From a virus (taxonomy: Duplodnaviria > Caudoviricetes): DNA of 32,578 nucleotides. The position numbers and the translations under genes are program-made. The number at the start of each line of letters is the position of its first letter. Within the stretch, counting starts at the first letter, position 1. Location: IMG/VR virus record IMGVR_UViG_3300020440_000003, positions 1-32,578 of that record. One strand, 5' to 3'. Below are positions 6,976 to 24,871 of the stretch, in pieces. The notes under the pieces were generated by a model. That model was not told the origin of the DNA and did no database searches. It worked only from the letters and a program-made list of their open reading frames with translations.

Positions 6976-8505
6976 TTATCCAACCCTTATTATTTTAGAT
7001 TTTAGAGGTTTTCTGAAATTATACCCTAAATAACTCACTGTGCCACCACTCGTTGCACTTGAGGCCATAGTTAAGGCTAAAGCATCTGCTCGGTCTGGTG
7101 ATTTAACACCACGCTTACGCATTTCCTCTTTACTTTCAATTTTTATTTTACCTGTTGAAGTATATTTATAACCAGGTGATGCTAATTCACGCACGAGTTC
7201 ATCATCTTCGGGCAAACGACAATCACGAGCTTGCAACCAATCTTTTATCTTAAACCAAAGTTCAGCACGAAGATTAAGATAATTCTTTTTGCTAGACGGA
7301 GATTCAGCCACATTTATGCCACGCACGGGCATATTAAGTTCACGCAGACGATCAACCACGCCTGAACCTATACCAATAACATCAACCAATATTTCTTGTG
7401 GTTTTTCTAAAACAGTTGCATCATCATAGCGATTTTTAACTACGCCACAAAGTTGCATCAGATCCATTGAGGCAAATGTTTCGACCTCAAAAACTGTATT
7501 ACCTTGACGAACACAAAGCGCAGAATTATCACCACCAAAACGAGCCACATCTAAACCCCAAACAATCGGCTCACTAGATGTTAAGTCAACATCACGACCA
7601 ACTGCACCTCTTATCAGCTCCATTGGTATAACAGCATCATCATCAGCACGGGGGAACTCACCCATAACTTCAACTCTTGCGACAGTTGAATCTTCGCCAT
7701 ACTGTTCGATCATGCGTGTGAATAAAGCGGTATCTGTGCCTTCGACTGTGCGTGAATCTATTTGTTCGGTTTGCCAAAAAGATCTGTTCCCGTGAAAGCA
7801 ATCATAAAAAGGTCCTGTGTTCCTACGTGGGTTGGAAAAACAAAACCAATATCTATCAGGCGTGGGTTCGGAGAAGAAACCTTCTGATACTGAGTAAATG
7901 GGTGCGGGAATACCTGATGCTTCATCCATGATTAAGCAGACACCATAACTAGAGTGAATACCTGCAAAAGCATCTGGATTTTCTTCAGACCATAACTGAG
8001 CTTGAGCGTAGTAATAGCCTGTGTCGATTTTTAAGTCACGCACGAGCGCTTCTTCAAACCATTGTGATGGTTTTATTGTAGTTGCTGTTTTACTAAACCA
8101 ATGTGAGTTGAGTGCAAGCGTGAGCCATTTACCAAGTTCAGCCCAAGTTCGTGAGCGTAACTGTTGTTCGGTGTTAGCTGTAACGATTATGGTTGAGCCA
8201 AGTCTGGTTGATAACATCCATAAGATTAGCCAAGACACTAAAGCTGATTTACCAATCCCACGACCAGAAGCAATAGCCATACGAAACATTTGTGGATCAA
8301 CACGACCTTGATTACGTTTTATATGTGTTGAAATTTTTTTCAAAATTTTTTCTTGCCACTTACGAGGTCCTTTAAAATCTTGTAGGGGGGTATCTTCTTG
8401 CCCCCAAGGGAAGATGTATTTAACAAACTTGTAAGGATCATTTTTTATTGTGGGTGTCCACACATCTAACATTAATTGTTTTTCTTGTTCTACTGGGTAT
8501 TTCAT
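6976..8505 (-). CDS. terL: Terminase large subunit
   Basis: Walker A SGRGIGKS, Walker B IMDEAS, SNP coupling motif, RNase H-like GLDVARFGGD...SPDRADAL. Confidence 0.96.
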   Translation of the reverse strand: MKYPVEQEKQLMLDVWTPTIKNDPYKFVKYIFPWGQEDTPLQDFKGPRKWQEKILKKISTHIKRNQGRVDPQMFRMAIASGRGIGKSALVSWLILWMLSTRLGSTIIVTANTEQQLRSRTWAELGKWLTLALNSHWFSKTATTIKPSQWFEEALVRDLKIDTGYYYAQAQLWSEENPDAFAGIHSSYGVCLIMDEASGIPAPIYSVSEGFFSEPTPDRYWFCFSNPRRNTGPFYDCFHGNRSFWQTEQIDSRTVEGTDTALFTRMIEQYGEDSTVARVEVMGEFPRADDDAVIPMELIRGAVGRDVDLTSSEPIVWGLDVARFGGDNSALCVRQGNTVFEVETFASMDLMQLCGVVKNRYDDATVLEKPQEILVDVIGIGSGVVDRLRELNMPVRGINVAESPSSKKNYLNLRAELWFKIKDWLQARDCRLPEDDELVRELASPGYKYTSTGKIKIESKEEMRKRGVKSPDRADALALTMASSATSGGTVSYLGYNFRKPLKSKIIRVG

Positions 8506-8714
8506 TTTTTATTTTTGAAATATAGGCGGGTGTAATATCTTCTTATGATAGCTGCGAATGTTAATACCATAAGTTGAATTACAGTTATGGTTAATGCGTC
8601 TTGTGTGAATACCAAAGTAATAGCTATGCAAGCCCATGATAGTGGAAAGTTGAAAGCTGCCCCTAGTATTGTGTCTGTTACTGATTCTTCTAATGCCTTT
8701 TTGTCAATTTTCAT
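8502..8714 (-). CDS. Small 2-TM membrane protein
   Basis: ES..D..LG...NF...IRRY..R.YF pattern; ATGA overlap with the terL start. Confidence 0.7.
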   Translation of the reverse strand: MKIDKKALEESVTDTILGAAFNFPLSWACIAITLVFTQDALTITVIQLMVLTFAAIIRRYYTRLYFKNKK

Positions 8715-10726: not shown

Positions 10727-10945
10727 ATGAATACATTAAAAGTTTTAAATCAAACCTATCGAAATTATTTAACCAATGAGATCGAAAAAATTGCTAATCC
10801 AAGAGGAAATTACACAGAGAAACAAAAAACAAAACTCTACAAGTTGCATGAGTTGAGAAAAGCGTATGATATGAAAGTGTGTGATTTAATGCACAATCCT
10901 AAAAGTCTTAAATTATATTTAAAACAAATGGAGAAAGAGGTATAA
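10727..10945 (+). CDS. Hypothetical protein
   Basis: GGGAG RBS; 72 aa. Confidence 0.7.
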   Translation: MNTLKVLNQTYRNYLTNEIEKIANPRGNYTEKQKTKLYKLHELRKAYDMKVCDLMHNPKSLKLYLKQMEKEV

Positions 10946-10948
10946 CTA

Positions 10949-11125
10949 ATGGAAAGAATCATAAATAATTTTATTCGTGGGGTGAAATCTTTTTTGTTTA
11001 AAAGAAAGATGGAACTGAAGTATAAGAAACCATACAAGGAGATATTGTGTGCGGAAATTGAAGAAGTTGATTTGATCATATCTAATAAAATTTTTGAGGA
11101 GGTGAATAATGAAGAAATCATATAG
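10949..11125 (+). CDS. Hypothetical protein (58 aa)
   Basis: Read by hand: MERIINNFIRGVKSFLFKRKMELKYKKPYKEILCAEIEEVDLIISNKIFEEVNNEEII; GAGG RBS. Confidence 0.6.
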   Translation: MERIINNFIRGVKSFLFKRKMELKYKKPYKEILCAEIEEVDLIISNKIFEEVNNEEII

Positions 11126-11282
11126 TTTGCTAGAGTTAGCCAAACTGCCGTTATGTTGTATGTGTTGTGGTAGTAGAAATGTTGATACTACTACAGATAC
11201 TTGCTTGTCTTGTGGCTCGACTGAGGGTTTATGGGCAGATGAAAGAACAGATGAAGAATATGAGGAGGTGAATGATGAGTAG
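11109..11282 (+). CDS. Small zinc-ribbon protein (57 aa)
   Basis: MKKSYSLLELAKLPLCCMCCGSRNVDTTTDTCLSCGSTEGLWADERTDEEYEEVNDE; two CxxC motifs; GAGGAGG RBS. Confidence 0.7.
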   Translation: MKKSYSLLELAKLPLCCMCCGSRNVDTTTDTCLSCGSTEGLWADERTDEEYEEVNDE

Positions 11283-11463
11283 AGATTTAGATATATGTGT
11301 GTGGGATATACAATTTTGCAAGAAAGACGAAGATGGCAATGAACTTTTAAATGATGATGGAACTGTAAAACTATTTCAGTTAAAAAGAGAACATGATGTT
11401 TCTTTTATTGCAGAGGGAACAGACCACGAAGATTTAGAGGAGATGAATGATGAAAAAATATAG
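11272..11463 (+). CDS. Acidic hypothetical protein
   Basis: GAGGAGG RBS; DEDGNELLNDDGTVKLF. Confidence 0.75.
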   Translation: MMSRDLDICVWDIQFCKKDEDGNELLNDDGTVKLFQLKREHDVSFIAEGTDHEDLEEMNDEKI

Positions 11464-11635
11464 ATTGACAGCTACCTTACCTGTTGTTGTTAATGCTTAT
11501 GTCGAAGCAAAGTCTATTGATGAGCTTTGGACAAAAGTAGAAAACAAACAAGCTATATGGTTCTCAAGTGAGCATGATAAATCTTTTTTACATAATGAAG
11601 ATATATATGATTATGAATTAGAGGAGAGTGAATGA
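11447..11635 (+). CDS. Hypothetical protein
   Basis: GAGGAG RBS; MKKY......VEAKS.DE pattern of small phage proteins. Confidence 0.7.
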   Translation: MMKKYRLTATLPVVVNAYVEAKSIDELWTKVENKQAIWFSSEHDKSFLHNEDIYDYELEESE

Positions 11636-11724
11636 TGACTGCTGAGATAATAATATCGTACTTACTGTTTGTATCAATAGCAGTAGGTTTTGCAGTTTGG
11701 TTTAATAGTGAGGGGGAAGAATGA
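11632..11724 (+). CDS. Single-TM micropeptide (30 aa)
   Basis: MMTAEIIISYLLFVSIAVGFAVWFNSEGEE; GAGGAG RBS; ATGA coupling at both ends. Confidence 0.6.
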   Translation: MMTAEIIISYLLFVSIAVGFAVWFNSEGEE

Positions 11725-12017: not shown

Positions 12018-12199
12018 TGACTTTAAAATATGAAATACAAGAATTTCAATACAATGAAAATTTATCATTCCAAAGTAATTTTGAAACTTGGTTTAGATTA
12101 GATACCAAAGAGAGAGAAGATTGGAACGATACACCCTTACACATAGAGGACGCTTACGATAAATTTGTTCGTTACTACGGACAGTTTAACGTGGCGTAG
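12017..12199 (+). CDS. Hypothetical protein
   Basis: AGGAGG RBS; last plus-strand early gene, convergent with the rep gene. Confidence 0.7.
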   Translation: MTLKYEIQEFQYNENLSFQSNFETWFRLDTKEREDWNDTPLHIEDAYDKFVRYYGQFNVA

Positions 12200-12647
12200 T
12201 GTTTCTCCCCCAAAGGGAACTCTTAACCTCTATAAGAGTTCCCAACCCAACCAATAAAAAATGTTTTTTACCACTTGGCTGAGATTTCCTCAAACGTACG
12301 CCAGGTTTATCTTCTAACACCAACCAAATAATATTCTTATCTATCAATTCAGCGATAGCACGTCCGCACGTCTTACGATTAACACCAACCATTTTGGCGT
12401 AATAATCAATAGCGTCATGGCTAGAACAAGTTTCCCACCGCCAACGCTCGCATAAACTCCATAAAATTAGTTTGGCACTCACGCTTAAATTTTTATTGCC
12501 CGCACGGGAACGATACCAACGCCAGACGCACGCACGCACGTCCGCAAAATCTTTTGGCTCACTAACATGACTATGATACAGATAGCCGTCATTCTGATCT
12601 GTTTCTGTATTTACTAGCCACCAATAATTTTTCTCTCTTTTTCTCAT
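12186..12647 (-). CDS. Winged-helix DNA-binding protein, probable replication initiator
   Basis: LS.SAKLIL..L.......S......A..VGVNRKT..RAI.EL....I wHTH pattern; lies immediately downstream of iteron-like repeats. Confidence 0.7.
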   Translation of the reverse strand: MRKREKNYWWLVNTETDQNDGYLYHSHVSEPKDFADVRACVWRWYRSRAGNKNLSVSAKLILWSLCERWRWETCSSHDAIDYYAKMVGVNRKTCGRAIAELIDKNIIWLVLEDKPGVRLRKSQPSGKKHFLLVGLGTLIEVKSSLWGRNTTPR

Positions 12648-12735: not shown

Positions 12736-12812
12736 TTACTAGGTCTATGTCCGTAACTTACTCATACTATGTCCGTAACTTACTCATACTATGTCCGTAA
12801 CTTACTAGGTCT
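12736..12812. repeat. 22-bp tandem iterons (putative replication origin)
   Basis: CTATGTCCGTAACTTACT(CATA/AGGT) at 12745, 12767 and 12789; TTACTAGGTCT at both ends; adjacent AT-rich tract. Confidence 0.85.
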
Positions 12813-12934
12813 GCTTTTTTGCCTTTAGTCTTTTTCCAATTCTTTTTGTGCGGTGAGTTGAAAATTTCATCCCATCTTTTTTGCATTTCTTGGTCTGATA
12901 TTTGGCTTTTTCTTCTGTCGCTACCCTTACTCAT
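12767..12934 (-). CDS. Small basic protein (55 aa, MSKGS.RR...WD.IF type)
   Basis: MSKGSDRRKSQISDQEMQKRWDEIFNSPHKKNWKKTKGKKADLVSYGHSMSKLRT; ATGA overlap with the MT-A70 stop; ends inside the iterons. Confidence 0.6.
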   Translation of the reverse strand: MSKGSDRRKSQISDQEMQKRWDEIFNSPHKKNWKKTKGKKADLVSYGHSMSKLRT

Positions 12935-13437
12935 ACTTCGTTACCCCAACAATCCCAACCTTCAAATTTTTCTCTTGCAAAGAGTTCTATTCGTGGGCTA
13001 TAACTCATTGATTCAATCATTTTTCTTGCTTCTATTGGTTTTTGGGAGTGTTTTCTTTTAGGACTAACCAACAAACTACTAACATTTCTTCTAATTGGTT
13101 TTAAATTTCCCTTAACACCAAATAAACATAATTCGTGTTGTCCTCTAAAATAATAACCAATACCAAAACTATCTTTAGCCCAAACAAAATTTGTCACATA
13201 TCTGAAACCCCATTCTTCCATTACTTCAATACCATCTTTGAGAAAATTGTTTGTCACCCACAAATAGAGCCAACAATTATCATCTGCAATATCCTGGACG
13301 GGCAGTTTTTTTATAGCCTCTGTTTTCATTAAAGGATAGTGCCTATCAGCCCCCCTTTTAATTTTACCCCCCCCCACTTCATTCCAAGCTGGATCACAAT
13401 AAATAGTTTTGTATTTTTTATTGGGAAAAGGAATCAT
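12931..13437 (-). CDS. MT-A70 family N6-adenine methyltransferase
   Basis: Y.TIY.DPAW (DPPW-like), HY.LM, LYLWVTN, WGF.Y, HS.KP, RIELFAR...GW..WGNE. Confidence 0.92.
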   Translation of the reverse strand: MIPFPNKKYKTIYCDPAWNEVGGGKIKRGADRHYPLMKTEAIKKLPVQDIADDNCWLYLWVTNNFLKDGIEVMEEWGFRYVTNFVWAKDSFGIGYYFRGQHELCLFGVKGNLKPIRRNVSSLLVSPKRKHSQKPIEARKMIESMSYSPRIELFAREKFEGWDCWGNEV

Positions 13438-13592
13438 TATCCTTGCCCCACATTAGGTTTATAACTTCTTCTAAAGTTTTTATTCATTGTTGCTGTGCCA
13501 ACATTTCTTCTGCCTTGTGAAGTCTTCTTACCCCTGACACCACATACAGGCACATGAGCATTGCTCAAACCAAACTTAGTTTTTTTAGGCAT
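13437..13592 (-). CDS. Small basic KKTSQG-type peptide, copy 2 (51 aa)
   Basis: MPKKTKFGLSNAHVPVCGVRGKKTSQGRRNVGTATMNKNFRRSYKPNVGQG; GGGAG RBS; TAATG coupling at both ends. Confidence 0.8.
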   Translation of the reverse strand: MPKKTKFGLSNAHVPVCGVRGKKTSQGRRNVGTATMNKNFRRSYKPNVGQG

Positions 13593-13801
13593 TATGTTAT
13601 CTCCCTATTTACACTCTCATAAATCCAATCAGGAATATGTATCAGTTTTGTTTTTGCACCTGTCGCCAAATACATATCTATAGCATTCTCAAACATGTTT
13701 CTATATTGCTCTCTCTTTATCCAACACTCATCTACTTTAGATTTAATTTTACAATCTTCTCGCCAAGACTTGTCAAGGTCAATCTCTTTGTAAAGTATCA
13801 T
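13592..13801 (-). CDS. Hypothetical MILY-type protein, copy 2
   Basis: Paralog of 15634-15873; ATGA overlap with the C5 MTase stop. Confidence 0.8.
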   Translation of the reverse strand: MILYKEIDLDKSWREDCKIKSKVDECWIKREQYRNMFENAIDMYLATGAKTKLIHIPDWIYESVNREIT

Positions 13802-15114
13802 TTGATTTCACCTAATATGTGTTTAATAACCTCAACTGTCCAACCATTGCCAAGCATCTTGTATCTTTGAGTATTGCTAACACCATCTGTATAGTTGTCT
13901 GGCACAGTCTGTAATCTTTCACATTCAAGAGGTGTTAGTTTTCTCCAGGTTAACTCTTCATCAACTACCACACTATCCTTGCCAACTGTCGTGATGGCAT
14001 TTGATTTATCATCCTTGCGTAGTTCTAGCATTTGTTTAGTTTTATTAGCAACTGAGCTACCATCACGATCCATGCGCTTACCATCTTTATCGTAAGCTCT
14101 ACCACGAAAAGCACCACCTGTTACTACCTTCGGCTCTCTGTTACCACCACCCATAGTATTTAATGTCGGAGATTTACCTTCTGGGCTATAAACTCTTTTT
14201 AAAATATCGTGACCACTTATGTCGGCAGCTATGCCAACTTGTTTTGGTTTGGTTTCAACCAAAGCATTACCCACGCCAGCAGTACCACCCGATTGTGAGG
14301 ACAGAGTAGAAGATTTACCATCTTGTGAGTATATTCTATTACCTTGTCCACCATCTTTAATACTACCAACTTGTTTTGGTTTGGTTTCTTTAAAATAATT
14401 ATATGGCACTCCTTTGTGCCAGTTTTCTGTTATGGTAAAAGACTTTTTCTTATCTGCTGTTTGCTCGTATCTATCTGCTCTTCTTGCTCCTGCTTGTTGC
14501 CATTTATCATTGCCTCTTTCCATATATTCTATTGATTTCTTACCATGATAAAATTCGTTGTCCACATCATTTTCTAATATATCTCTTAGTACAATACCTC
14601 TCTCTTCTGGTTGTTTTATATTTGGAATATTTGTCCAATAAAACCTCTGCCTCGATTGGGCGGAAAGAAGAGAAGAATTTATCAAAATAGGTTGTATGCC
14701 AAAAGTAATCTCTGGATAACACTCTGATACTTGCTGTGAAATAATATCTACAAACTCTTTCTTCATTCTGACATTCTCTAATAAAAAATACTTAGGCTTG
14801 ATTGCTTTGAGCATGCGAATAAACTCAAAAAACAATGCAGACCTTGGGTCATCAAATGCTAATTGTTTGCCTGCAAAACTAAAACCTTGACACGGACTAC
14901 CACCCATAATTAAATCTACGTCTGCGAAATCTTTAGGATCTAGTTTTGTAATGTCACCAACTTGTATTGTTTCGGGAAAATTTTTTTGTGTTATCTCGAT
15001 AGCATACTTATCTATTTCACTTGCATAGTAAGTGTCAACCTCTATACCTAATTGATCTAGGGCTATCTGCCCACAACTCATACCATCAAATAAACTTAAT
15101 ACCTTAATCGCCAT
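13798..15114 (-). CDS. C5-cytosine DNA methyltransferase with an expanded variable region
   Basis: Motif I SLFDGMS, motif IV GGSPCQGFS, motif VI ENV, motif VIII QSRQR, motifs IX-X RKLTPLECERLQ and GNGW. Start most likely 15114 (or 15144) rather than 15195. Confidence 0.95.
   Translation of the reverse strand: MAIKVLSLFDGMSCGQIALDQLGIEVDTYYASEIDKYAIEITQKNFPETIQVGDITKLDPKDFADVDLIMGGSPCQGFSFAGKQLAFDDPRSALFFEFIRMLKAIKPKYFLLENVRMKKEFVDIISQQVSECYPEITFGIQPILINSSLLSAQSRQRFYWTNIPNIKQPEERGIVLRDILENDVDNEFYHGKKSIEYMERGNDKWQQAGARRADRYEQTADKKKSFTITENWHKGVPYNYFKETKPKQVGSIKDGGQGNRIYSQDGKSSTLSSQSGGTAGVGNALVETKPKQVGIAADISGHDILKRVYSPEGKSPTLNTMGGGNREPKVVTGGAFRGRAYDKDGKRMDRDGSSVANKTKQMLELRKDDKSNAITTVGKDSVVVDEELTWRKLTPLECERLQTVPDNYTDGVSNTQRYKMLGNGWTVEVIKHILGEIK
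14234..14388. repeat. 23-bp exact direct repeat inside the MTase variable region (ETKPKQVG)
   Basis: CCAACTTGTTTTGGTTTGGTTTC at 14234-14256 and 14366-14388, 132 nt apart, in frame. Confidence 0.92.
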
Positions 15115-15229
15115 TCCTTTGTTTAAACCATAATCTTGTAGCATATCTTCTACCTTGTGAAGTTTTTTTACCTCTAACACCGCATACAGGCACATGAATT
15201 GTTGTTTGTCCTTTACTTTTTTTTGCCAT
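15104..15229 (-). CDS. Small basic KKTSQG-type peptide, copy 1 (41 aa, divergent C-terminus)
   Basis: MAKKSKGQTTIHVPVCGVRGKKTSQGRRYATRLWFKQRNGD; 17 residues identical to copy 2. Confidence 0.7.
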   Translation of the reverse strand: MAKKSKGQTTIHVPVCGVRGKKTSQGRRYATRLWFKQRNGD

Positions 15230-15428
15230 GTTCTATATAGTTAGTTAATTTTGAGAGCCAACATTTAGCTACAAATTCTGCGTGTGAGTAAGGATATTTT
15301 TGCATATCTACCTTTCTTATAAGTTTTTCCTCGTCATAAAGATTAACCTGGTAACTGTCTGCTAAATAAATTTTGGCAGTTCTGGTAGTTTCTTTTTCTG
15401 CAAATTCTTTTACTAATTTTTTATTCAT
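15213..15428 (-). CDS. Hypothetical protein (71 aa)
   Basis: In operon with overlapping neighbours. Confidence 0.65.
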   Translation of the reverse strand: MNKKLVKEFAEKETTRTAKIYLADSYQVNLYDEEKLIRKVDMQKYPYSHAEFVAKCWLSKLTNYIEHGKKK

Positions 15429-15516
15429 CTTCTGCCAGTATTAAAAACAACAATAGACTATCAGTTACTAAAATAATAATAAATAATAAAATTGTAAATT
15501 GTGTTAGATCAATCAT
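15421..15516 (-). CDS. Single-TM micropeptide (31 aa)
   Basis: MIDLTQFTILLFIIILVTDSLLLFLILAEDE; fills the gap with overlaps. Confidence 0.5.
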   Translation of the reverse strand: MIDLTQFTILLFIIILVTDSLLLFLILAEDE

Positions 15517-15634
15517 TTTTATTTTCACACTCTTTGCACACTTCTAGTCTAAATATTTTATATTCTTTTTGTTTCTGTCTAAAAATATCTAACGGATATT
15601 CTCTCTGACAGATTTTACATTTTCTCTTTTTCAT
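15509..15634 (-). CDS. Small zinc-ribbon protein (41 aa)
   Basis: MKKRKCKICQREYPLDIFRQKQKEYKIFRLEVCKECENKND; two CxxC motifs; TAATG coupling. Confidence 0.65.
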   Translation of the reverse strand: MKKRKCKICQREYPLDIFRQKQKEYKIFRLEVCKECENKND

Positions 15635-15873
15635 TAAGTTTCATCTGTTTCAAGATCTATAATATTTTTTATATCTTCAGAAATTTCTTTTGGCATATAA
15701 ATTTTTACAGTCATAGACACTTTAGGATTTTGTCCAGCAACTAAAGTATCTAAATATTTTTCAAAATGAAATCTAAACTCCTCTCTATGCAACCAGGCAA
15801 GATTATTTTTAGTTCTTTGTTTGCAGTCATATCGCCAAGCATAATCTAAATTTTTTTCTGTATATAAGATCAT
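15634..15873 (-). CDS. Hypothetical MILY-type protein, copy 1
   Basis: Paralog of 13592-13801; ATGA overlap with the N4/N6 MTase stop. Confidence 0.8.
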   Translation of the reverse strand: MILYTEKNLDYAWRYDCKQRTKNNLAWLHREEFRFHFEKYLDTLVAGQNPKVSMTVKIYMPKEISEDIKNIIDLETDET

Positions 15874-16829
15874 AAAATATTTATTTGTTGAAAAATTCCT
15901 AATTCTTTCTCTATCCTTTTCTTTGCTATTTTTACATATTCAGGATTAATCTCTACCATAATTGAGTTTCGATTTTGACTTTCAGCAACAATACAAGTTG
16001 TGCCACTACCACCAAAAGGATCAAACACAACGCCATTTTCAGGACACCCCGCTAACACACAAGGCTCAATCAAGTCTTTTGGAAAAGTTGCAAAGTGGGC
16101 CTCTTTGAATGGCTTTGTTGTTACTGTCCAGACAGATCTTTTATTTTTGTATGGCAAAGCTGTGATCTTTGCCAAACCACCTCTAGTGTCCATACCATGC
16201 TGTCCTACCCCTTTTTTAATTTTATCTGGAGAATTAGGTCCATTTGGGAACTTAGCCTTTTCTTTAATCGCCTCATTATCAAAGTAATACTTAACATTTT
16301 TACTTAATAAAAAAATATATTCATGTGCTTTGGTGCATCTATCTTTGACACTCTCTGGCATAGGATTAGGCTTGTGCCAGATAATATCTTGTCTTAGATA
16401 CCACCCGTCTTGCTGTAATGCGAAAGCTACACGCCAAGGTATTCCTGCCAAATCTTTATCCTTATAAAAAGAATGTCCATACATGTCTTTCTTACCACCT
16501 TTATGCAAGATGCCATATTTTTTTTGATTTTCGCCACCACCAGCTAGTGTTTGCTCTCTGGTTGAATATCTGCTTTTGCCACTTATATAACTATCTCCAA
16601 GATTTAACCAAACAGTTCCATCATCACGCAATACTCTTTTTACTTCCTTAAATACATTTACCAAGTTTTCTACAAATTCTTCTGGTGTATTTTCCATACC
16701 AAGTTGACCACCCTCACCATAATCACGCAATCCCCAATAAGGTGGTGAGGTGATACAAGTATTAACAGATTTATCAGGTATTTCTTTAAGTCTTTGAAAT
16801 ACGTTTCCCTTATAAATATTTATTCCCAA
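15870..16829 (-). CDS. N4-cytosine/N6-adenine DNA methyltransferase (beta class)
   Basis: TSPPY catalytic motif, IIWHKPNPMPES, HFATFP, DPFGGSGTT SAM-binding motif; GGAGG RBS with TTG start. Confidence 0.95.
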   Translation of the reverse strand: MGINIYKGNVFQRLKEIPDKSVNTCITSPPYWGLRDYGEGGQLGMENTPEEFVENLVNVFKEVKRVLRDDGTVWLNLGDSYISGKSRYSTREQTLAGGGENQKKYGILHKGGKKDMYGHSFYKDKDLAGIPWRVAFALQQDGWYLRQDIIWHKPNPMPESVKDRCTKAHEYIFLLSKNVKYYFDNEAIKEKAKFPNGPNSPDKIKKGVGQHGMDTRGGLAKITALPYKNKRSVWTVTTKPFKEAHFATFPKDLIEPCVLAGCPENGVVFDPFGGSGTTCIVAESQNRNSIMVEINPEYVKIAKKRIEKELGIFQQINIL

Positions 16830-18694
16830 TTTATACCTCCATTATCATTTATTGGCTCTAATATATTTTTTCTTCTAAATAAAGTTTTCACTTTACTGTC
16901 TATTTCTGAACTGTTCGCTTTCACTACTCCACATTTAACCACACGCATAGGATCAAAATCTACGCCTTGATCTGTACAGATTCTTTCCGCCTCACCTTCT
17001 GGGGCTAACCAAATTGCAATCGCAGCTCTATGACCATCTACAATAGAACTTGCTCCTCTAATGCTTGCTCTCGCTTGCATACTGTCCTCTGTGCCTGTTA
17101 AACCTGTTTTACCCATATGATGTATGCTTAAACAAGCACAATTAAATTTAGCCGATATTCTGGTTGCTAACTGACAATACATTTGACTTGCCTCTTGACT
17201 TGTTGTTATTGGAGCGTTCACGAATGATTGAATCGGATCAATTATGACTAACTCCAAGTCATTAATTGTTTCTAACTCTTCAATCAAATCTTCTGCCTGT
17301 GTTGTTATCTGTAAACCAGAACTATCTTCTTTGAGCAAAGTAAAGGGTTTGCCATAATCAGGTACAGTAAAAACAAACATATCGTAATTTGTTTCAAATC
17401 TTGTAAATTTTGGATCAAGAGCATTTACTCTTCTATGAATTTCTTGTCTATCATCTTCAGCCGCTAAAACGACAACATTGCCAGCTTTTTTTATTGGATT
17501 ATCCAACCAAATACCACTACCCCTTATTATCTTCAATCCTAAATCTAACGAGAGCATTGATTTACCAACGCCACCAATAGAGGCTAATAACATTGGTTTA
17601 GATTTTTCTACCAACCTATCAACTAACCACTCACGGGGCGGAGGATCTTCAACCAAGTTACGAACTGCATATTGTTTAAGTCCGATTCCTGTTTCTGATA
17701 ACTCCAACCTTACTTGTTCGATACCATGTTCGAGTGCTAGGTCGTTGAAATCTCCAGGTTTGCTTGGTATGCGTGCAATACAATTAGAAATTGCATTAGC
17801 ACAATCCTCCGCTTTTTGTTTCCCCAAGCCGCTTTTATCATTATCAAAGGCCACCAGAAACCTTGCATTAGTTTTTTCACGCAAGTTGGCTAAAGAGGCA
17901 AGGCCAAAATTTGCGGAAAAAATGCAGACAGAGGGGATGCCTGTTGCAAGATAACTGGTGACGGATGTTGCCATACCTTCACAAATAATTAATTTATCTA
18001 AATTTGGTAAATCGCTAATATTAAAACCGACTGGAAAAAAATTACCCTTAACTTCACTAGCGGAAACGAATCTTTTTTCTCCCTGTGCAGAAATATACTG
18101 CAAACTTCTGATTTCAGCATTTACATTGTAAATTGGCACTACTAAGAGCGTCTTATTTGCTCTCAGGCTTTCGCATTTTATTTTTTTGGTTTCTAAGTAG
18201 GGGTGTTTTTCAACCTGTTCATAGCTTTTAAATCTGTTTGCACAATCAACAGCTACTTCATCATAGCGTTCTAATTTGTGTTTTTCAGATTCCTCTTTGG
18301 CTTCTTTTAGTTTTTTCTGCAAATCATTACGTTCACGCACGCTCAGATCATTAGTCTGAACGCTCGACCACTTTTTTTCTTCGCCTGTACGCCAGTTCCC
18401 GTACGCACAAAAAGTATGCTTACCAAGTTGATTGACCGCATACCAACCAGATTTTTCACCATGCTTATCAGGTCTAGTAATAGAACTTGCTTTGACTGAG
18501 CAACGGACAAGTCCGCCACCCGTATCAAGATATGGCACGTCTAAACCAAAGTTATTAAGTTCTGTTAGCAAATCGTCTGTAGTTTTGCCTTTGCCCTCAA
18601 ATACTAAATTCTGATTTATTACAATGCCATCATTAAAGTATTTCGTCAGTTTGACCAAAATCTGTTTTCCCCGTTTCTGCTTGATAGTTTGCAA
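16820..18694 (-). CDS. DNA primase-helicase (Toprim + RepA/AAA_25-type helicase)
   Basis: KSGWY N-terminal domain, SLQYI...GEKRF, ICEG.AT, FDND..G, GDFND, Walker A GGVGKS, IIDP, HH.GK, RGASS. Start may be TTG at 18658. Confidence 0.92.
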   Translation of the reverse strand: MQTIKQKRGKQILVKLTKYFNDGIVINQNLVFEGKGKTTDDLLTELNNFGLDVPYLDTGGGLVRCSVKASSITRPDKHGEKSGWYAVNQLGKHTFCAYGNWRTGEEKKWSSVQTNDLSVRERNDLQKKLKEAKEESEKHKLERYDEVAVDCANRFKSYEQVEKHPYLETKKIKCESLRANKTLLVVPIYNVNAEIRSLQYISAQGEKRFVSASEVKGNFFPVGFNISDLPNLDKLIICEGMATSVTSYLATGIPSVCIFSANFGLASLANLREKTNARFLVAFDNDKSGLGKQKAEDCANAISNCIARIPSKPGDFNDLALEHGIEQVRLELSETGIGLKQYAVRNLVEDPPPREWLVDRLVEKSKPMLLASIGGVGKSMLSLDLGLKIIRGSGIWLDNPIKKAGNVVVLAAEDDRQEIHRRVNALDPKFTRFETNYDMFVFTVPDYGKPFTLLKEDSSGLQITTQAEDLIEELETINDLELVIIDPIQSFVNAPITTSQEASQMYCQLATRISAKFNCACLSIHHMGKTGLTGTEDSMQARASIRGASSIVDGHRAAIAIWLAPEGEAERICTDQGVDFDPMRVVKCGVVKANSSEIDSKVKTLFRRKNILEPINDNGGINWE

Positions 18695-19004
18695 AATTCA
18701 AATATTCTCTCACGATATTTGCAAACAGTTTCTCTCTATTTGTTTTACTCCATTCGTGCAATGTCCAAGTTTTTTCTGTTTTGGCTATTTTTAAATAAGT
18801 TTGTTTAGTTTCTTTAATAGCATAATGTAGCCCCTTTTCTGATAGCCTAGCTTTATTTTTAAGTTTTTCGCCTTTTTGCAATTTTCTTAAATGCGACATT
18901 GAACAAGCACCGAAAGTTTTTTTTGTATCAATAAGCAGATAACCTCTAGCGGGTGATTTGCAGTAACCACACAAGCTAGGGTTATCTTGCTTTAAATCAA
19001 ACAT
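18633..19004 (-). CDS. Hypothetical protein with CxxC...CxxxH zinc finger
   Basis: CGYC...ACSMSH; lies between SSB and primase. Confidence 0.7.
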   Translation of the reverse strand: MFDLKQDNPSLCGYCKSPARGYLLIDTKKTFGACSMSHLRKLQKGEKLKNKARLSEKGLHYAIKETKQTYLKIAKTEKTWTLHEWSKTNREKLFANIVREYLNFANYQAETGKTDFGQTDEIL

Positions 19005-19006
19005 TT

Positions 19007-19456
19007 CTAAAAAGGAATGTCTGGATCATCTTCTGGTTCTGCTTTTTTAGGTGTAACTTTTTTGGCTACAGCTTTTTTTTCAACTGCTTGCCAATTTTTG
19101 CCATAGTTATCATCAATTTCTGCATAACCAGATTCATTATTTTTTACCTCAACCGATACAGTTTTTCCTTTCAGTTCTTCTGTATTTTTGAGTTCTGTTA
19201 AACCAGCTGCATTAGCTAACATAGCCAATGATTGCCGACCAATATCAATCGCTTTAGGATTATTTGAACCAACAGTAAATGTGCAAGGCACAAAATGATT
19301 CGTTCCCTCAACTGAAAATAGCATTTTTATAGCTACCCATCCATTTTTTCCAGAGATTTCCTCTGCGCTAACATAACTTACGTTATATCTTCCTGGTTGT
19401 AACGCCTCTTGTTCAAGAGTTGCGTCCACCTCTAAGTCGTAATTGGATAAATCCAT
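19007..19456 (-). CDS. Single-stranded DNA-binding protein (DUF669-like)
   Basis: L.PGRY start and acidic DDPDIPF tail; AAGGAG RBS places the start at 19456; follows the Sak4-like gene. Confidence 0.78.
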   Translation of the reverse strand: MDLSNYDLEVDATLEQEALQPGRYNVSYVSAEEISGKNGWVAIKMLFSVEGTNHFVPCTFTVGSNNPKAIDIGRQSLAMLANAAGLTELKNTEELKGKTVSVEVKNNESGYAEIDDNYGKNWQAVEKKAVAKKVTPKKAEPEDDPDIPF

Positions 19457-19466
19457 TATTTTCTCC

Positions 19467-19616
19467 TTAACGCCAACACTTATAGTTTTGGCAATTTTCT
19501 TCATTTTCACCACAATATTTGCAAACTCCGTCCACAAATTGAGGTTCATCATCTTCTAAACTATCCCAAATCGGATGATCTGGATTATCTTTGTATTTAA
19601 AAGATTGTTTCTTCAT
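19467..19616 (-). CDS. Small Cys-rich protein (49 aa)
   Basis: MKKQSFKYKDNPDHPIWDSLEDDEPQFVDGVCKYCGENEENCQNYKCWR; ATGA coupling. Confidence 0.6.
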   Translation of the reverse strand: MKKQSFKYKDNPDHPIWDSLEDDEPQFVDGVCKYCGENEENCQNYKCWR

Positions 19617-20341
19617 TTCAACATTTCCTCACGAATAGTAGCCCAATCGAAAGGAAGTTCTTCTGGTAGGCCATATCTATTCTTTGCAAGATATGCTGGC
19701 TTTTCTACTGTGTAACATACTCTGTCACCGCTAACGGCTTTGGTAGTCATGTTGCCACCTTTACCTTGCACTTTAACTGTGCCTAATTTAAAACTAGCGA
19801 ACAAACAAGCGTCTGAGTGTTCAAGCAACAAGTCAGCAGCTTTTCTGTGAAGTTTAAGCTCGTGTCTATCAAAGGCTTCAATACGAGGATCTTCAACCTT
19901 TTTAATTTGGTTGTGTGCTATTTGGATAATAGTCATGCCTTTGTTTCTTAAGTCATTAAGAATATCAATGTATTCACGCCAATAACTCAAAACTGTGACA
20001 TAACCCTTACCAAAGCCAGGTTGCTCAATGGTTTTCCAGCCATTATCTTCACAAGCCTTGTTCCATATAAGTGGCTCTAACCAATCCAATGAATCTATGA
20101 TTAAGGTTTTAAAATCATGTTTCTCTTCTTGTAATGTTTTTAGATAGGACATGAAATCAGTATAAGATTTTGCAACAGGAAAATGATCTGCCTCTACTTT
20201 ACCTAAACCATCTTCAGTCAAAATAAAAATAGGTTTATTGGTAGTAGCTCCGAAAGAAGTTTTACCAACTCCAGCTCCACCATAAATTACAATTCTTGGC
20301 GGCTTGACTTTGGCTTTTTTCTTAATAAGTTCTAAGCTCAT
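19613..20341 (-). CDS. AAA_24/Sak4-like ATPase (ssDNA annealing/recombination)
   Basis: IYGGAGVGKTS, IIDSLDWLE, GFGKGY, IAH, AKNRYGLP. Confidence 0.88.
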   Translation of the reverse strand: MSLELIKKKAKVKPPRIVIYGGAGVGKTSFGATTNKPIFILTEDGLGKVEADHFPVAKSYTDFMSYLKTLQEEKHDFKTLIIDSLDWLEPLIWNKACEDNGWKTIEQPGFGKGYVTVLSYWREYIDILNDLRNKGMTIIQIAHNQIKKVEDPRIEAFDRHELKLHRKAADLLLEHSDACLFASFKLGTVKVQGKGGNMTTKAVSGDRVCYTVEKPAYLAKNRYGLPEELPFDWATIREEMLK

Positions 20342-20625
20342 TTTTCATCCTTACTAGATTTAACTACAGTTTTTTTTGGTAGCGCCTGTTCTAGTTTGTT
20401 GGCTTGGTTTGAAATGTAGGCATCTAAGATTTGATTTGTTCTTACCTCAAGTATTGCCTCATTATGTTTGTTCGCTCTAGCATTTTTAATCTCTAAAGCT
20501 GCACTCAACTCTGTCGCTAAAGGACGAGTTGAATCATCTAAATCTTCGTCAAAAACATCTCTACTTTCACCAGATTGTGAGGTTAAAGTAAAGAGTTTTT
20601 CTTTTGCATCAGTTTTTACCGACAT
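20338..20625 (-). CDS. Hypothetical protein
   Basis: AGGAG RBS; in operon. Confidence 0.7.
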   Translation of the reverse strand: MSVKTDAKEKLFTLTSQSGESRDVFDEDLDDSTRPLATELSAALEIKNARANKHNEAILEVRTNQILDAYISNQANKLEQALPKKTVVKSSKDEK

Positions 20626-21355
20626 TTTTTTCTCCTATATTTAAGTCCTGATAAACAGGACATTTCGCTTTCGCATTACAAAAGCGACAATGATCGCCAA
20701 AGACAAGCTCTGGCTCTTCTCTCTCGCAGGCATCAGTAGCCTCTTTAAGAAAACTGAAACCCCAATCGACTAGATCTGTTGCGGATATATCCCAACTTCT
20801 AATGGGTCCATCAGGGCTAAATGATCTTGGTTGCACAATGGTTAATTCAAGCGTTGTATCTTCGTTACCATAACGTGATAAAGCTCCTAAACCATAAATC
20901 ATTAACTGTGTATTATTTTTTGGATCAACAGGGAATTTGCCAGATTTAAGGTCGCATACAACTAATCTATTTTTTCCAATAATTAGTGCGTCAGCCGTTC
21001 CCCAAACATTTTGGCTTATCTCTTCTATTGATACTCTCTCTTCTATTAACAATTTTCCCTCTAGTTCTTTTTGCCTTTTTCTTACATAATCAACATATAC
21101 TTTGGCACAATCAATCATACTCTGATCTATTGTGATTATAAAATCTTCTATATTCTCCTCTTTATTTAAGTAATAATCTTCCAGCGTTATATTATCCAAG
21201 CGGTCTTTTAACTGCGCCTCAACCATTTGGTGAACTAATGTTCCATTAGCAGCAGCTTCAGACACTTGATAGGGTACATCCTGTGCCAACTTTGGCATAC
21301 CAGGACACTTCAACCAAATGTTAGAGGCTGAAGGGCTAAGAAGAGCATGAGCCAT
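20609..21355 (-). CDS. Cas4/RecB-like PD-(D/E)XK exonuclease (DUF2800-like)
   Basis: HA.LSPS...W..CP, GT..H, GTADAL, DLKSG, QLMIY, C-terminal CRFC.AKA.CP Fe-S cysteines. Confidence 0.88.
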   Translation of the reverse strand: MAHALLSPSASNIWLKCPGMPKLAQDVPYQVSEAAANGTLVHQMVEAQLKDRLDNITLEDYYLNKEENIEDFIITIDQSMIDCAKVYVDYVRKRQKELEGKLLIEERVSIEEISQNVWGTADALIIGKNRLVVCDLKSGKFPVDPKNNTQLMIYGLGALSRYGNEDTTLELTIVQPRSFSPDGPIRSWDISATDLVDWGFSFLKEATDACEREEPELVFGDHCRFCNAKAKCPVYQDLNIGEKNVGKN

Positions 21356-21548
21356 TACTTATATAAGATTTATTTTCTAATTCAATAATTTCTGCTAGAT
21401 CATATAAGACCTTGCCACCAATTTTGTAATAGTTTGGACCTTCACCACGACCACGCCAGTTTTCAATAGTTCTTGGGCTTTTATTCCAACGCTTCGCTAA
21501 CTGGCTTGTATTTAAGAAATTTCTCTCGTTGTTTGTATCTTCTTGCAT
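21336..21548 (-). CDS. Excisionase/AlpA-like HTH protein
   Basis: FLNT.QLA.RW..SPRT.ENWR..G.GP.Y.KIG..VLY; GGGAG RBS. Confidence 0.88.
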   Translation of the reverse strand: MQEDTNNERNFLNTSQLAKRWNKSPRTIENWRGRGEGPNYYKIGGKVLYDLAEIIELENKSYISNGSCSS

Positions 21549-21593
21549 AAAACTCCCTTTTTGTTCTATTTTGGTTTAGTATATACATAAAAA

Positions 21594-21617
21594 TACACTT
21601 TACAATGTAAAAGTGTA
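21594..21617. promoter_or_regulatory. Operator-like palindrome in the divergent control region
   Basis: TACACTTTACA-A-TGTAAAAGTGTA (one bulge); overlaps the -35 of a candidate leftward promoter TTGTAA-16-TATACT (21605-21578). Confidence 0.55.
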
Positions 21618-21635
21618 AAATTTTAGGAGAATATT

Positions 21636-21872
21636 ATGGGAATTAAAAAAGAGAATAATATGGTTGATAAACCAGCACACTACACAAAGGGATCTATTGA
21701 GTGTAAAGACGCAATAAAATCTGCTTTGGGTAGAGAGCAATACGAAGGATTTTTGCGTGGCAATATACTTAAATATGTATGGCGAGGTCCACATAAAGGT
21801 GAAAATCTGGAGGATTATAAAAAGGCTCGTTTTTGGCTTGATGAACTTATCTCCGAAATAGAGGAAATGTAA
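21636..21872 (+). CDS. DUF3310-like protein
   Basis: V..P.HYT.G.IEC.DAI...F.RGN.LKY.WR..HKG...ED..KA.F.L signature. Confidence 0.88.
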   Translation: MGIKKENNMVDKPAHYTKGSIECKDAIKSALGREQYEGFLRGNILKYVWRGPHKGENLEDYKKARFWLDELISEIEEM

Positions 21873-22120
21873 TGTTAAATGATATAAAAATAAGAAAAGA
21901 TGGCTTATTTGATGGCATTGATGATCCTATTCTTAACGAAAGATATGGCAAAAAAGCCTTGTGGATTGATAGATTTTTGCATAATAAATTGCAAAAAATA
22001 TCAAAAACCAAAAATAAAAACCCACAAGCAATAGCCGAATATCTAATTAGTTTGGGAATATCAACTGTTGAAAATTCTAATATGCCAACAGAAATTACTT
22101 TTGATATAGATAAATTATAA
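21872..22120 (+). CDS. Probable ribbon-helix-helix DNA-binding protein
   Basis: KALWID (strand), LHNKLQKIS (helix), PQAIAEYLI (helix) pattern; TAATG coupling. Confidence 0.55.
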   Translation: MLNDIKIRKDGLFDGIDDPILNERYGKKALWIDRFLHNKLQKISKTKNKNPQAIAEYLISLGISTVENSNMPTEITFDIDKL

Positions 22121-22963
22121 ATCTGTAATCAAGTTCTCAATATGGTTGCCAATCTTGTTGGCGTTCTCAATACTTTTCTCTTCGTGAATATGAGCATACC
22201 TTTGTGTCGTAGCTTGATCTCTGTGGCCAAGTAGTTCACCCACGTCAGCAAGTTTAACTACCTGTAATGACCAAGAGGCGTAACTGTGTCTAATGTCATG
22301 CAAACGCACATTATCAATATTGCAATTTTTTAATATAGTGTGCCAGGCACGTCTAGGTGATTTTATACCGACAATATAATCAGAATCTTTTGTAGTTTTA
22401 TCTAACATACCAAGAATCTGTGGGGATAAATATATAATTCGATCCTCACCTAGACGATCATTTTTATGATTTTTAATAATTAATTTGTTGTCGTGAATGT
22501 CTGTCCATTTAGCTTGTGCTATCTCACCTTTTCTAGCACCTGTTAATATCAATAACCAAATAAATAAAATTGATTTTTTATATATTGGATTTTTTTGCAG
22601 TCTGTTCATTTCACGCACAACAGCTATCAACTCTTTATTAGTTAAATATCTTTTGCGTTTATTTTCTCTATTTTTATTAATGTGTGTAGCTGGATTATTT
22701 TCTACCAAAGATAAAGTAATGGCTAAGTTAAACATAGCTTTAAGTGTAGTTAGTATGTTGTTAGCAACAAATGGCGCACGTTCAGATATACTTAAATGTA
22801 ATGATGCAATATCACCACGAATTATATCTGTAATTGGTTTATCACCAAGTATGGGTTTTATATTGTTGTCGTAAAGTTGATTAATTTTATTAGTGGTTTT
22901 ACAACCCCTACGTTTTAGATCACGAAGATACAGCTTGAATAACTGATTCAGATTTTGTTTCAT
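22115..22963 (-). CDS. int: Tyrosine recombinase/integrase (282 aa, no arm-binding domain)
   Basis: TGARKGE, HK, LHDIRHSYAS, LLGH and TQRYAH catalytic residues, all intact. Confidence 0.93.
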   Translation of the reverse strand: MKQNLNQLFKLYLRDLKRRGCKTTNKINQLYDNNIKPILGDKPITDIIRGDIASLHLSISERAPFVANNILTTLKAMFNLAITLSLVENNPATHINKNRENKRKRYLTNKELIAVVREMNRLQKNPIYKKSILFIWLLILTGARKGEIAQAKWTDIHDNKLIIKNHKNDRLGEDRIIYLSPQILGMLDKTTKDSDYIVGIKSPRRAWHTILKNCNIDNVRLHDIRHSYASWSLQVVKLADVGELLGHRDQATTQRYAHIHEEKSIENANKIGNHIENLITDL

Positions 22964-23387
22964 TTTTTCTCTCTCTTAATATATTTATTATCTCAATCGC
23001 AGTTTTCAATGATTCATGCGGATTGAAACTTTTAATAAATTCTAACTTCTTTTGATATGTTTTGCCAAGATTTTCGTTAGGTGCAAAAGTAACCTTATCT
23101 GAAGGTAGAAAAACAAAAGCGAAAATATCAACTTCTTCTTTATTATATAATCTTTGTTCTCCTGTATTTGATATTTTCTTTTTTATATCCCACCTTACCC
23201 AATCAGCATTGTTTCTTTCAAAAGGAGAGGCTGAAGTTTTTACTTGTATTTTATAAGATTTGTTATTAAGAACTGCTAAGAAATCGTAACGTGAGTGTGA
23301 TGGACATTCAAAGATCTCGTCAAAGTATCTAGCGAGGTAGCTGGCGGTGAGGTATTCCCCCGCACGGCCAACTTGGTTTGGTGTCAT
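22920..23387 (-). CDS. PD-(D/E)XK endonuclease
   Basis: GRAGE, RYDFL, KIQVKT, Y....VDIFAFV. Confidence 0.85.
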   Translation of the reverse strand: MTPNQVGRAGEYLTASYLARYFDEIFECPSHSRYDFLAVLNNKSYKIQVKTSASPFERNNADWVRWDIKKKISNTGEQRLYNKEEVDIFAFVFLPSDKVTFAPNENLGKTYQKKLEFIKSFNPHESLKTAIEIINILRERKNETKSESVIQAVSS

Positions 23388-24871
23388 TCTTCAGTTTCAT
23401 TTATAGGAACTTGACTTAATTGTGATCCAAAAAAGGGTGACAAACCTCTTACTACTGGATCAGCGCTAGTTAATAAACCAGTAGTTGGTGACATTCCCCC
23501 TATCCTTGCCATAGCAAGCTCAGAAAGAATTGCTGGAGGTCCTAATGTTACTAATTTTGTTGGATCTATAATTATATCTTGAGCCAATAATCTTGATGCT
23601 GTTCCAGTTTCAGGAAATTGAGAACCCAAAATTTGTTGAGCTTGTTCTGCTGTTTCTTGTAAGGGTTGTTTGCCAGCGATTGTTTGTCTTTTTCTTAAAG
23701 TTTCATCTTGTTTTTTTACTGCTCTTAATAGTTGAGCTGGCGTAAATATGCCTTCATTAACTATTGCATTTTCCATAGCTCTATTTATTGGTATCATGTT
23801 TTTGTAAACTTGATTTATTTTTTTAAGCTGATCTGAATTGGGGTTTTGTAAATCTATTTCATTTTCTAAAAGTCTTTTTATATTTGATAAAACCTCACCA
23901 ACATCTCCTTCAAAACCACCCCTTTTTTTATAGCTAGATGATAATTTTCTTAAATCAGTTTGTGCATTTTTTAATAAATTACCAGAAATTTTTCCATCTT
24001 TAATTTGCGTTAAAATAGTTTTATTAACGATTTTTAAAACTCTTTCCTGTTCTTTTGGATCAAGTATGCTATCTTCTATTGTGTTTAATATTTTATTTTC
24101 AAAGTTACCTAAATCTGAAATAGATAATTTTGGTAAAATTTTTGCATATTCTTCATCCAATCTATCTTGAACAAATTCAAAAGATTCTCTAGGTGTTAAA
24201 TTTTTAGGAATTTTTATATTTAAAGGTTGTACAGCTTCGTTAATAAAGACTTGGTTTGTTTTTATTAAACCTTCTAATCTTTTCCCTTGAATTACTGCAC
24301 CAGCACCAGGGTAAGAGGTAGTTAAATCTTCTAAAGCTGTAATTAATGATGATCCAATAGAGCCTTGATCTCTAAGAGATTGTCCTGGTGTTAATGGTAT
24401 GCCTTTTTCTTGAAGTTTTTTTGCTATCTTAGACTTTTGTGGTAGTAATTTTTCTGCGGCTTTAGATACGCCACCACCTAATGTAGCACCTAAAGCAGCG
24501 CCAGTTAGTCTTTCTTCTGCACTTTCTCCAGTTCCAGCTCCATACAATGCTCCTTCAATTGCACCTATTTTTCCAGCGCCAGTTAATCCAAGTCTAGCCA
24601 ATCCTGCTCCACCAAGCAAAGCTGATGGTATGCTTGCTAATGCTTCAGAACCATATGCTGCTACAGGTGCTTGCTCCCTAAAAGCATCAAGTTCCGATCT
24701 AATTGTTTCTAAATTTTCTTCATAACCTTTATCGCCAGCTAATGATCTTACAAAAGCCTCAGCTTCATCAGCAAAACCAAATAATAATCCTTGTCCTACA
24801 GATCTACTAAGACCTGTTGTAATATCTAGTTCTTGTGATTGTCTTTTAACTTTTTTCTTTGGAGCTGGCAT
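23384..24871 (-). CDS. Internal virion/DNA ejection protein
   Basis: GQGLLFGFADEAEA and G/A-rich hydrophobic segments, SGTA.R-like ETGTASR; last structural gene. Confidence 0.75.
   Translation of the reverse strand: MPAPKKKVKRQSQELDITTGLSRSVGQGLLFGFADEAEAFVRSLAGDKGYEENLETIRSELDAFREQAPVAAYGSEALASIPSALLGGAGLARLGLTGAGKIGAIEGALYGAGTGESAEERLTGAALGATLGGGVSKAAEKLLPQKSKIAKKLQEKGIPLTPGQSLRDQGSIGSSLITALEDLTTSYPGAGAVIQGKRLEGLIKTNQVFINEAVQPLNIKIPKNLTPRESFEFVQDRLDEEYAKILPKLSISDLGNFENKILNTIEDSILDPKEQERVLKIVNKTILTQIKDGKISGNLLKNAQTDLRKLSSSYKKRGGFEGDVGEVLSNIKRLLENEIDLQNPNSDQLKKINQVYKNMIPINRAMENAIVNEGIFTPAQLLRAVKKQDETLRKRQTIAGKQPLQETAEQAQQILGSQFPETGTASRLLAQDIIIDPTKLVTLGPPAILSELAMARIGGMSPTTGLLTSADPVVRGLSPFFGSQLSQVPINETEE

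Follow-up and report, generated by a model that had tools for sequence, protein, structure and literature searches.

The marine virus record IMGVR_UViG_3300020440_000003 (Duplodnaviria; Caudoviricetes), analyzed here over 32,578 nucleotides (hereafter the window), carries between positions 12931 and 16829 of its minus strand three methyltransferase genes, among which two kinds of small genes, MILY and KKTSQG, each occur twice. We conclude that a 1,640-bp segment of a distant marine podophage was very probably gained in one recent recombination inside the KKTSQG gene, and that this event created both apparent gene pairs. A recent recombination from a distant phage is indicated because the insert differs from the donor-type contig L001 at only 2 of 1643 bases, while its flanks are 97–98% identical to the recipient-type contigs L008 and L009. 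Both parent types and the empty site were observed, and both junctions were resolved to the base.

The donor-derived segment occupies 13509..15151 on the minus strand, with a net insertion of 1640 bp, and its identity to L001 stops abruptly at both ends (15151 and 13509). It holds the C5 cytosine methyltransferase gene (13798..15114, minus strand; 438 amino acids with four tandem modules resembling target recognition domains (TRDs); PF00145, E 4e-55), MILY-2 (13592..13801, minus strand; 69 amino acids) and the 5' half of a KKTSQG gene, and it lies within the one KKTSQG gene that the recipient has. At the left end the recipient KKTSQG reads in frame via a 6-bp microhomology, AGAAGA (15146..15151, minus strand), common to the recipient gene and the end of a donor DUF7220-like gene, into the last 13 codons of the latter. 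The resulting KKTSQG-1 (15104..15229, minus strand) is thus an in-frame chimera of 28 recipient codons and these 13 donor codons. The chance of an in-frame join at this junction is one in three, and the hexamer is not rare, with nine occurrences in 9097 nt of L001. At the right end, with a crossover at 13511–13509, the donor 5' half passes in register into the recipient 3' half, so that KKTSQG-2 (13437..13592, minus strand; phrog_17967) is a full-length hybrid; donor and recipient KKTSQG are alike at 45 of 50 nt upstream of this crossover and at 45 of 66 downstream. In recipient coordinates both crossovers lie at the same AGA triplet, and consequently no recipient DNA was lost. Between KKTSQG-1 and KKTSQG-2, 22 of 29 residues are alike, and the two genes have in common a 56-nt repeat, 88% identical, at a spacing of 1640 bp. 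The insert codes only for the C5 enzyme, MILY and the gene halves, no inverted repeats at its ends were found among the 25 longest of 228 pairs listed, and it does not qualify as a site-specific mobile cassette.

The parent lineages were found by searching with each MILY copy separately. The recipient type (lineage A: L008, L009 and, in part, L164) is 98% identical to the window over 16819–23391 and 97% over 15142–15872. Its gene order is primase, C5 methyltransferase, MILY-1, three small open reading frames (ORFs), one intact KKTSQG, SKGS and a PAPS-reductase-like gene. MILY-1 of the window (15634..15873, minus strand; 79 amino acids), which is the recipient lineage's own copy, is 96% identical to the single copy in L008 and L009, and the three small recipient ORFs that follow (15213..15634, minus strand; 41, 35 and 71 amino acids) stand there in the same order with 94–98% identity. 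The donor type (lineage B: L001–L007, L155, L156, L158 and L161) has the order prim-pol, DUF7220-like gene (DUF7220 match at E 8e-6, below the curated cut-off), C5 methyltransferase, MILY-2, KKTSQG, and MT-A70 or another methyltransferase. MILY-2 of the window is this lineage's copy and is 91–99% identical to the single copies in L001–L007. Lineage B and the window have virion protein families in common, and further patches of 84–91% identity lie near 10934–11722. The primase of lineage B is of another type, the Sak4 proteins are 35–36% identical and the terminases gave no significant pairwise match; as judged from these comparisons, donor and recipient phages are distant overall. In three donor or recipient records, which are fragments, searches for terminase and portal genes found none.

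The preliminary description of this locus had taken the small genes for paralogous pairs, and it was correct in the minus-strand gene order and in the three methyltransferase families (PF01555, PF00145 and PF05063 matches). The similarity within both pairs stands, but KKTSQG-1 is incomplete and takes its last 13 residues from another gene, and duplication in this genome is not their source: the copies come from two phage lineages through one insertion. Since MILY-1 and MILY-2 stem from two different phages, a pair appears without any duplication. An old tandem duplication of a methyltransferase-MILY-KKTSQG unit within the lineage, followed by divergence, would explain why this order occurs twice, and the MILY tree is compatible with the two types as sisters. 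However, each copy is 96–99% identical to the single-copy gene of a different lineage, while MILY-1 and MILY-2 show 39% identity to each other (E 1e-14), and the borders of the supposed second unit coincide with those of donor identity. The donor match thus largely refutes this explanation, which we consider hardly credible. Nor is the locus a tandem array of repeat units, as each copy matches a different lineage and none of the 131 contigs mapped in our survey of both families holds more than one copy of either gene.

The junctions were found in other assemblies as well. A single contig from run X5 spans 13376–15274 across both junctions with no differences, two contigs from X8 cross one junction each, and the left and right junctions recur in assemblies L157 and L160, respectively. 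An assembly chimera of two co-occurring phages might be suspected, as samples of the same kind contain donor as well as recombinant types and the X3 contigs break off some 30 nt beyond the junctions (in X7, one of the pieces listed ends near each junction). Against this stand the contigs of X5, X8, L157 and L160 that cross the junctions, and the shared stretches at the junctions, which at 6 and 15 nt are shorter than the assembly's 77-nt end overlap. The check for a chimera was therefore passed, and we give this explanation practically no credence.

The preliminary description had also proposed a search for 1640-bp deletion junctions, which proved positive: in a 1330-nt contig of run X9, position 13505 is joined to 15146, so that exactly 1640 bp are skipped. 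This empty-site form holds the window's genes on the N4/N6 methyltransferase side together with its MT-A70 gene, differs at two positions in 1330 nt and has recipient letters at all diagnostic sites. X10, X11 and X13 contain the donor form, and the donor contigs of X10 and X13 part from the window at 15151; among runs X11–X20, which have low word shares, only X11 and X13 were taken as evidence. A skip joint was seen in one of the four runs of the second set (X9), while none was listed in X3, X5, X7 or X8. Because L008, L009 and all other relatives are single-copy, we infer that the single-copy state is ancestral.

The empty site invites a more dynamic reading, in which cassettes would land in KKTSQG repeatedly and the C5 cassette, by means of the 56-nt direct repeat, would leave and re-enter as a circle, with populations routinely toggling and stacking methyltransferase cassettes. 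Filled and empty forms indeed coexist and are otherwise almost identical, as the two differences in the X9 contig attest; the coinciding crossovers are what circle integration predicts; and the gene after KKTSQG varies, being MT-A70, a 403-amino-acid N4/N6 methyltransferase (L161) or none (L008 and L009). However, we saw a single insertion of this kind, neither gene is doubled in any of the 131 contigs, and the skip joint is confined to the one run named above. Furthermore, the empty form carries recipient letters throughout the diagnostic sites, as an ancestor would, and in 11 of 11 distant relatives the cargo varies without MILY or KKTSQG. We therefore regard such toggling as improbable. Slightly less doubtful, though still improbable, is a wider version: KKTSQG, SKGS and the primase end might be recurrent landing pads across distant marine podophages, and the short direct repeat that each insertion leaves would allow a multispecific methylase cassette to be excised and integrated anew as a circle, which would amount to a reversible anti-restriction accordion, independent of a recombinase, at the level of whole genes and at that of TRD modules.

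Several points weigh against a single recent insertion as we read it. The junction evidence consists of assembled contigs, not raw reads, and X5 shares its study with a run that may be a source of the window, while X8 does not. The X9 contig alone could be a pre-insertion ancestor or a product of precise excision. L008 and L009 are nearly identical and amount to about one lineage, and MILY-1 and MILY-2 as sister groups were not rejected in the MILY tree (approximately unbiased test, p-AU 0.128, with 35 of 65 sequences kept). Finally, the event resembles homology-facilitated illegitimate recombination (HFIR), yet without its usual deletion.

For a single insertion, one might envision the following course. 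Donor and recipient phages would have met in one cell, either by co-infection or by infection of a lysogen. Pairing within the common KKTSQG gene would have fixed one end, and the 6-bp microhomology would have closed the other. The phage's own Sak4 and SSB probably assisted the pairing, and the Sak4-type annealase could have guided the KKTSQG end: the window encodes a Sak4-like single-strand annealing protein as candidate recombinase (19613..20341, minus strand; phrog_124, E 3e-44), whose role in the insertion is our suggestion, with an SSB-like gene beside it (19007–19552) and an exonuclease gene nearby (20609–21355). Integration of a small circle or repair at a single break fits at least as well as HFIR, and better than two independent crossovers, because the crossovers coincide and nothing was lost. 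The product retains one whole KKTSQG gene next to a stub, in frame, with a stop codon that overlaps the start of C5. The insert would likely benefit its carrier through wider protection from host restriction.

The gene boundaries deserve a closer look, as both MILY genes had been described as starting within an ATGA overlap with the preceding methyltransferase stop, and both KKTSQG genes as ending at the next methyltransferase start. The former is present in the sequence. The latter is true of KKTSQG-2, which meets the MT-A70 gene in a TAATG overlap, but the likeliest start of the C5 gene is 15114, in agreement with relatives, and KKTSQG-1 thus overlaps it by 11 nt. The stub's stop lies 11 nt into the C5 gene, as does that of the donor's own upstream gene, and the in-frame stub would keep the translational coupling to C5. 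Such stop/start overlaps are not peculiar to methyltransferases, since they also join MT-A70 to SKGS in the window and KKTSQG to SKGS in L008.

Are MILY and KKTSQG then dedicated partners or regulators of the adjoining methyltransferases, as had been offered as one possibility? With profile searches we collected 59 MILY loci and, as the best among 477 confirmed stretches of viral contigs, 80 KKTSQG loci; 22 duplicate loci and one spurious locus were dropped and 131 contigs mapped. MILY was present in 98 of these, KKTSQG in 83 and both in 50; as the survey was queried with the two genes themselves and many contigs are related, these counts describe a range and not independent events. A DNA-modification gene lies directly upstream of MILY, with a stop/start overlap, in 12 of the 98 contigs (two lineages and one sister group), which would suit a partner. 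In contrast, 83 of the 98 MILY genes stand directly before a GTA-type (gene transfer agent) holin gene (PF11351; 24) or an unannotated holin-like gene (59; the term is our own label), and MILY itself comes after a lysozyme gene in 31 contigs, after a head-tail gene in 28, or after a large virion gene. The gene before KKTSQG is holin-like in 37 of 83 contigs and a ribonucleotide reductase in 19, and KKTSQG precedes a methyltransferase or other DNA-modification gene in 7 of 83 contigs. Moreover, MILY-1 stays 96% identical while its neighbor changes from C5 to N4/N6, and in L104 MILY directly follows the primase. The co-occurrence across genomes expected of a dedicated methyltransferase accessory is therefore not seen, and a partnership is very unlikely. 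The proposed repeat-unit architecture does not hold either, with both genes single-copy across the 131 contigs and mostly beside lysis, head-tail or ribonucleotide-reductase genes.

The position of MILY before a holin or holin-like gene, often after a lysozyme, recurs in unrelated phage types (e.g., L029, L051, L107 and L114). MILY is thereby a candidate accessory protein of the lysis cassette with no Pfam family. KKTSQG is a very basic protein of 50 amino acids found at many unrelated positions in marine phages; one might guess that it binds nucleic acids. No Pfam family matched either protein, the ESM Atlas returned only unnamed clusters for KKTSQG and no usable match for MILY, and KKTSQG had no match among GenBank phages.

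The primase/helicase gene (Toprim and AAA_25; 16820..18694, minus strand; 98% identical in L008, L009 and L164) forms a fixed upstream border, and the small basic SKGS gene (12767..12934, minus strand) the usual downstream one. As judged from gene content, the stretch between the primase and the downstream SKGS and helix-turn-helix (HTH) genes is a variable DNA-modification cargo region, which we liken to the nin region of lambdoid phages, likewise variable. Slot 1 immediately follows the primase; in the window it holds an N4/N6 (beta-class) DNA methyltransferase gene (15870..16829, minus strand; PF01555, E 1.8e-54), where the close relatives L008, L009 and L164 have a C5 methyltransferase. 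Slot 2 holds a gene of the MT-A70 family (12931..13437, minus strand; PF05063, E 1.3e-28), which lies outside the 1640-bp insert and is present in the empty-site form. Because it is only 80% identical to the donor's gene and absent from L008 and L009, it was a separate gain; its catalytic motif reads DPAW in the window vs. DPPW in the donor.

Of 38 primase loci, 7 had been mapped earlier and 14 end inside the primase, leaving 17 that were mapped together with L203. Among these 18, a DNA-modification gene follows the primase directly in 16, one has none and one is cut; the slot contains N4/N6, C5, another methyltransferase family, Mom or a TET-associated glycosyltransferase. The loci mapped earlier have C5 (L008, L009, L164, L133 and L134), Mom (L105) or nothing (L104) in this position. 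The glycosyltransferase was seen in L188 and L189, within a marine podophage clade (L177–L198) in which PAPS-reductase-like genes appear and vanish near the slot. None of the 11 distant contigs that reach the HTH gene has MILY or KKTSQG between primase and HTH. Since the cargo varies in all 11 without either gene, neither is needed for cassette swapping. The suggestion that the small genes are homology anchors for methyltransferase exchange therefore survives in part: one junction does lie in KKTSQG homology and the modification genes do vary, so that KKTSQG likely served once as an anchor, but the distant relatives vary without it.

The imported C5 enzyme has features of its own. Its four TRD-like modules lie between motifs VIII and IX and are bounded by KPKQV-like linkers, at which the gene contains a 23-bp internal repeat. 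Module 2 aligns weakly (independent E-value 0.078) with the TRD loop region of M.HhaI, whose target is GCGC, and its comparison with GenBank phages gave no match at E 0.01. Module 3 matches part of the phi3T, H2 and rho11s enzymes at 67–73% identity and is only weakly similar to SPR; we presume that it corresponds to the GCNGC reader of the phi3T enzyme. Modules 2 and 3 are homologous to each other (E 4e-9), while modules 1 and 4 are defined by a short motif alone. Protection of GCNGC by the phi3T enzyme is described in PMC4736252, and tandem TRDs in Bacillus phage C5 enzymes in PMC8936443 and PMC12707154. Among the best 120 of 2765 homologues, both flanking motifs were present in 112, from which 82 distinct variable regions were obtained. 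These comprise 2–7 motif-defined cores (mean 4.4 vs. 0.18 in shuffles; the simple core motif can overcount), 28 core types and 51 arrangements. The enzymes of relatives carry other combinations, whole modules having been gained, lost and exchanged; in the C5 genes of L002, L007, L156 and L161, an insert of about 75 amino acids in one module is gained and lost with that module. The module architecture suggests that the imported enzyme is likely multispecific. An AlphaFold model built from a 7-sequence alignment was unusable (mean predicted local distance difference test score, pLDDT, 30.6). A literature search of openly accessible papers, in which the small families had no names to be queried by, turned up none that treats this locus or marine multispecific C5 enzymes.

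With its 77-nt end overlap and direct terminal repeats, the window comprises a whole circular phage genome of about 32.5 kb (35% G+C), and the phage is present in marine sequencing runs from several studies. It encodes an SU10-type portal, ejection proteins, an integrase, primase/helicase, Sak4, an SSB-like gene and an exonuclease. Because of the portal, the ejection proteins, the integrase and other gene content, it is probably a temperate podophage. Its terminase is about 50% identical to the nearest named terminases. No tRNA genes were found in the genome, and a scan of it for promoters and terminators stayed at chance level (17 vs. 17.5). Across the window CGCG occurs 0 times (16 expected), CGNCG once (13 expected) and CCGG once (10 expected); this shortage would be consistent with restriction pressure, other causes being possible. 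Among the matches listed, L203, 99.7% identical to window positions 15821–24694, was binned in a metagenome-assembled genome titled Rhodobiaceae MED766. As L203 shows no host flank, this is only a weak hint at a Rhodobiaceae host. Three 22-bp tandem repeats at 12736–12806, with a hairpin nearby, lie just upstream of an HTH_36 gene (12186–12647) that has weak replication-initiator matches, and L009 has a similar but diverged array; the repeats are a candidate origin or operator. The window's own DUF7220-like gene (8502–8714) precedes the terminase, its DNA being 67–75% identical to the donor DUF7220-like gene.

The locus offers a base-resolved natural case of a phage adding, rather than swapping, an anti-restriction gene. 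Recipient, donor, recombinant and empty site are all found in public ocean data from several studies (records 2014–2025), which makes it possible to measure directly how distant wild phages recombine and how a likely multispecific methylase spreads.

How does this compare with known systems? The HFIR signature is one-sided homology combined with 3–10 bp of microhomology, and in the classical case about as much is usually deleted as inserted (PMC3240628); it has also been proposed for the immunity-gene arrays of the type VI secretion system in Vibrio cholerae (PMC5361080). In the window, too, one end lies in pre-existing homology with an in-register crossover (the hybrid KKTSQG-2), the other at a 6-bp microhomology (AGAAGA, 15151–15146), and a new gene was added while a relic of the old one was kept. 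However, HFIR was described for linear donor DNA that enters bacterial chromosomes, depends on RecA and usually deletes, whereas here DNA passed from phage to phage with Sak4 and SSB as candidates, and in place of a recipient deletion of similar size the empty site rejoins exactly. We therefore say that the insertion works like HFIR and do not file it as a member. Temperate-phage mosaicism through relaxed homologous recombination is the second point of reference: 169 of 635 mosaics show one homology trace (PMC3945230), and oligonucleotides with as much as 20% divergence are annealed by the Sak4 protein of HK620 (PMC5928155). The recent, nearly identical segment in distant phages, the one homology trace and the encoded Sak4, SSB and exonuclease all agree with this, while the marine, uncultured phages, a Sak4 instead of a Rad52-like enzyme, and the possession of both parents and the empty site set the present case apart. 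Third, orphan methyltransferases are flexible anti-restriction cargo of phages (PMC7468147, PMC4190342, PMC12707154) and rank first in frequency among the variable-island genes of cryoconite phages (PMC7468147, PMC4190342). Here as well methyltransferases come and go at a variable site, yet one post-primase position takes N4/N6, C5, Mom or glycosyltransferase genes clade-wide, and three methyltransferase families are stacked in a 32.5-kb genome. Fourth, the multispecific C5 enzymes of the Bacillus phages phi3T, SPbeta, rho11s, H2 and SPR likewise carry tandem TRD-like modules in a variable region (PMC12707154, PMC8936443), whereas the marine family shows 2–7 modules in its 51 arrangements. Taken together, the locus adds one more clean case to the known mosaicism of phages, with a known kind of enzyme as cargo, and is not a new system.

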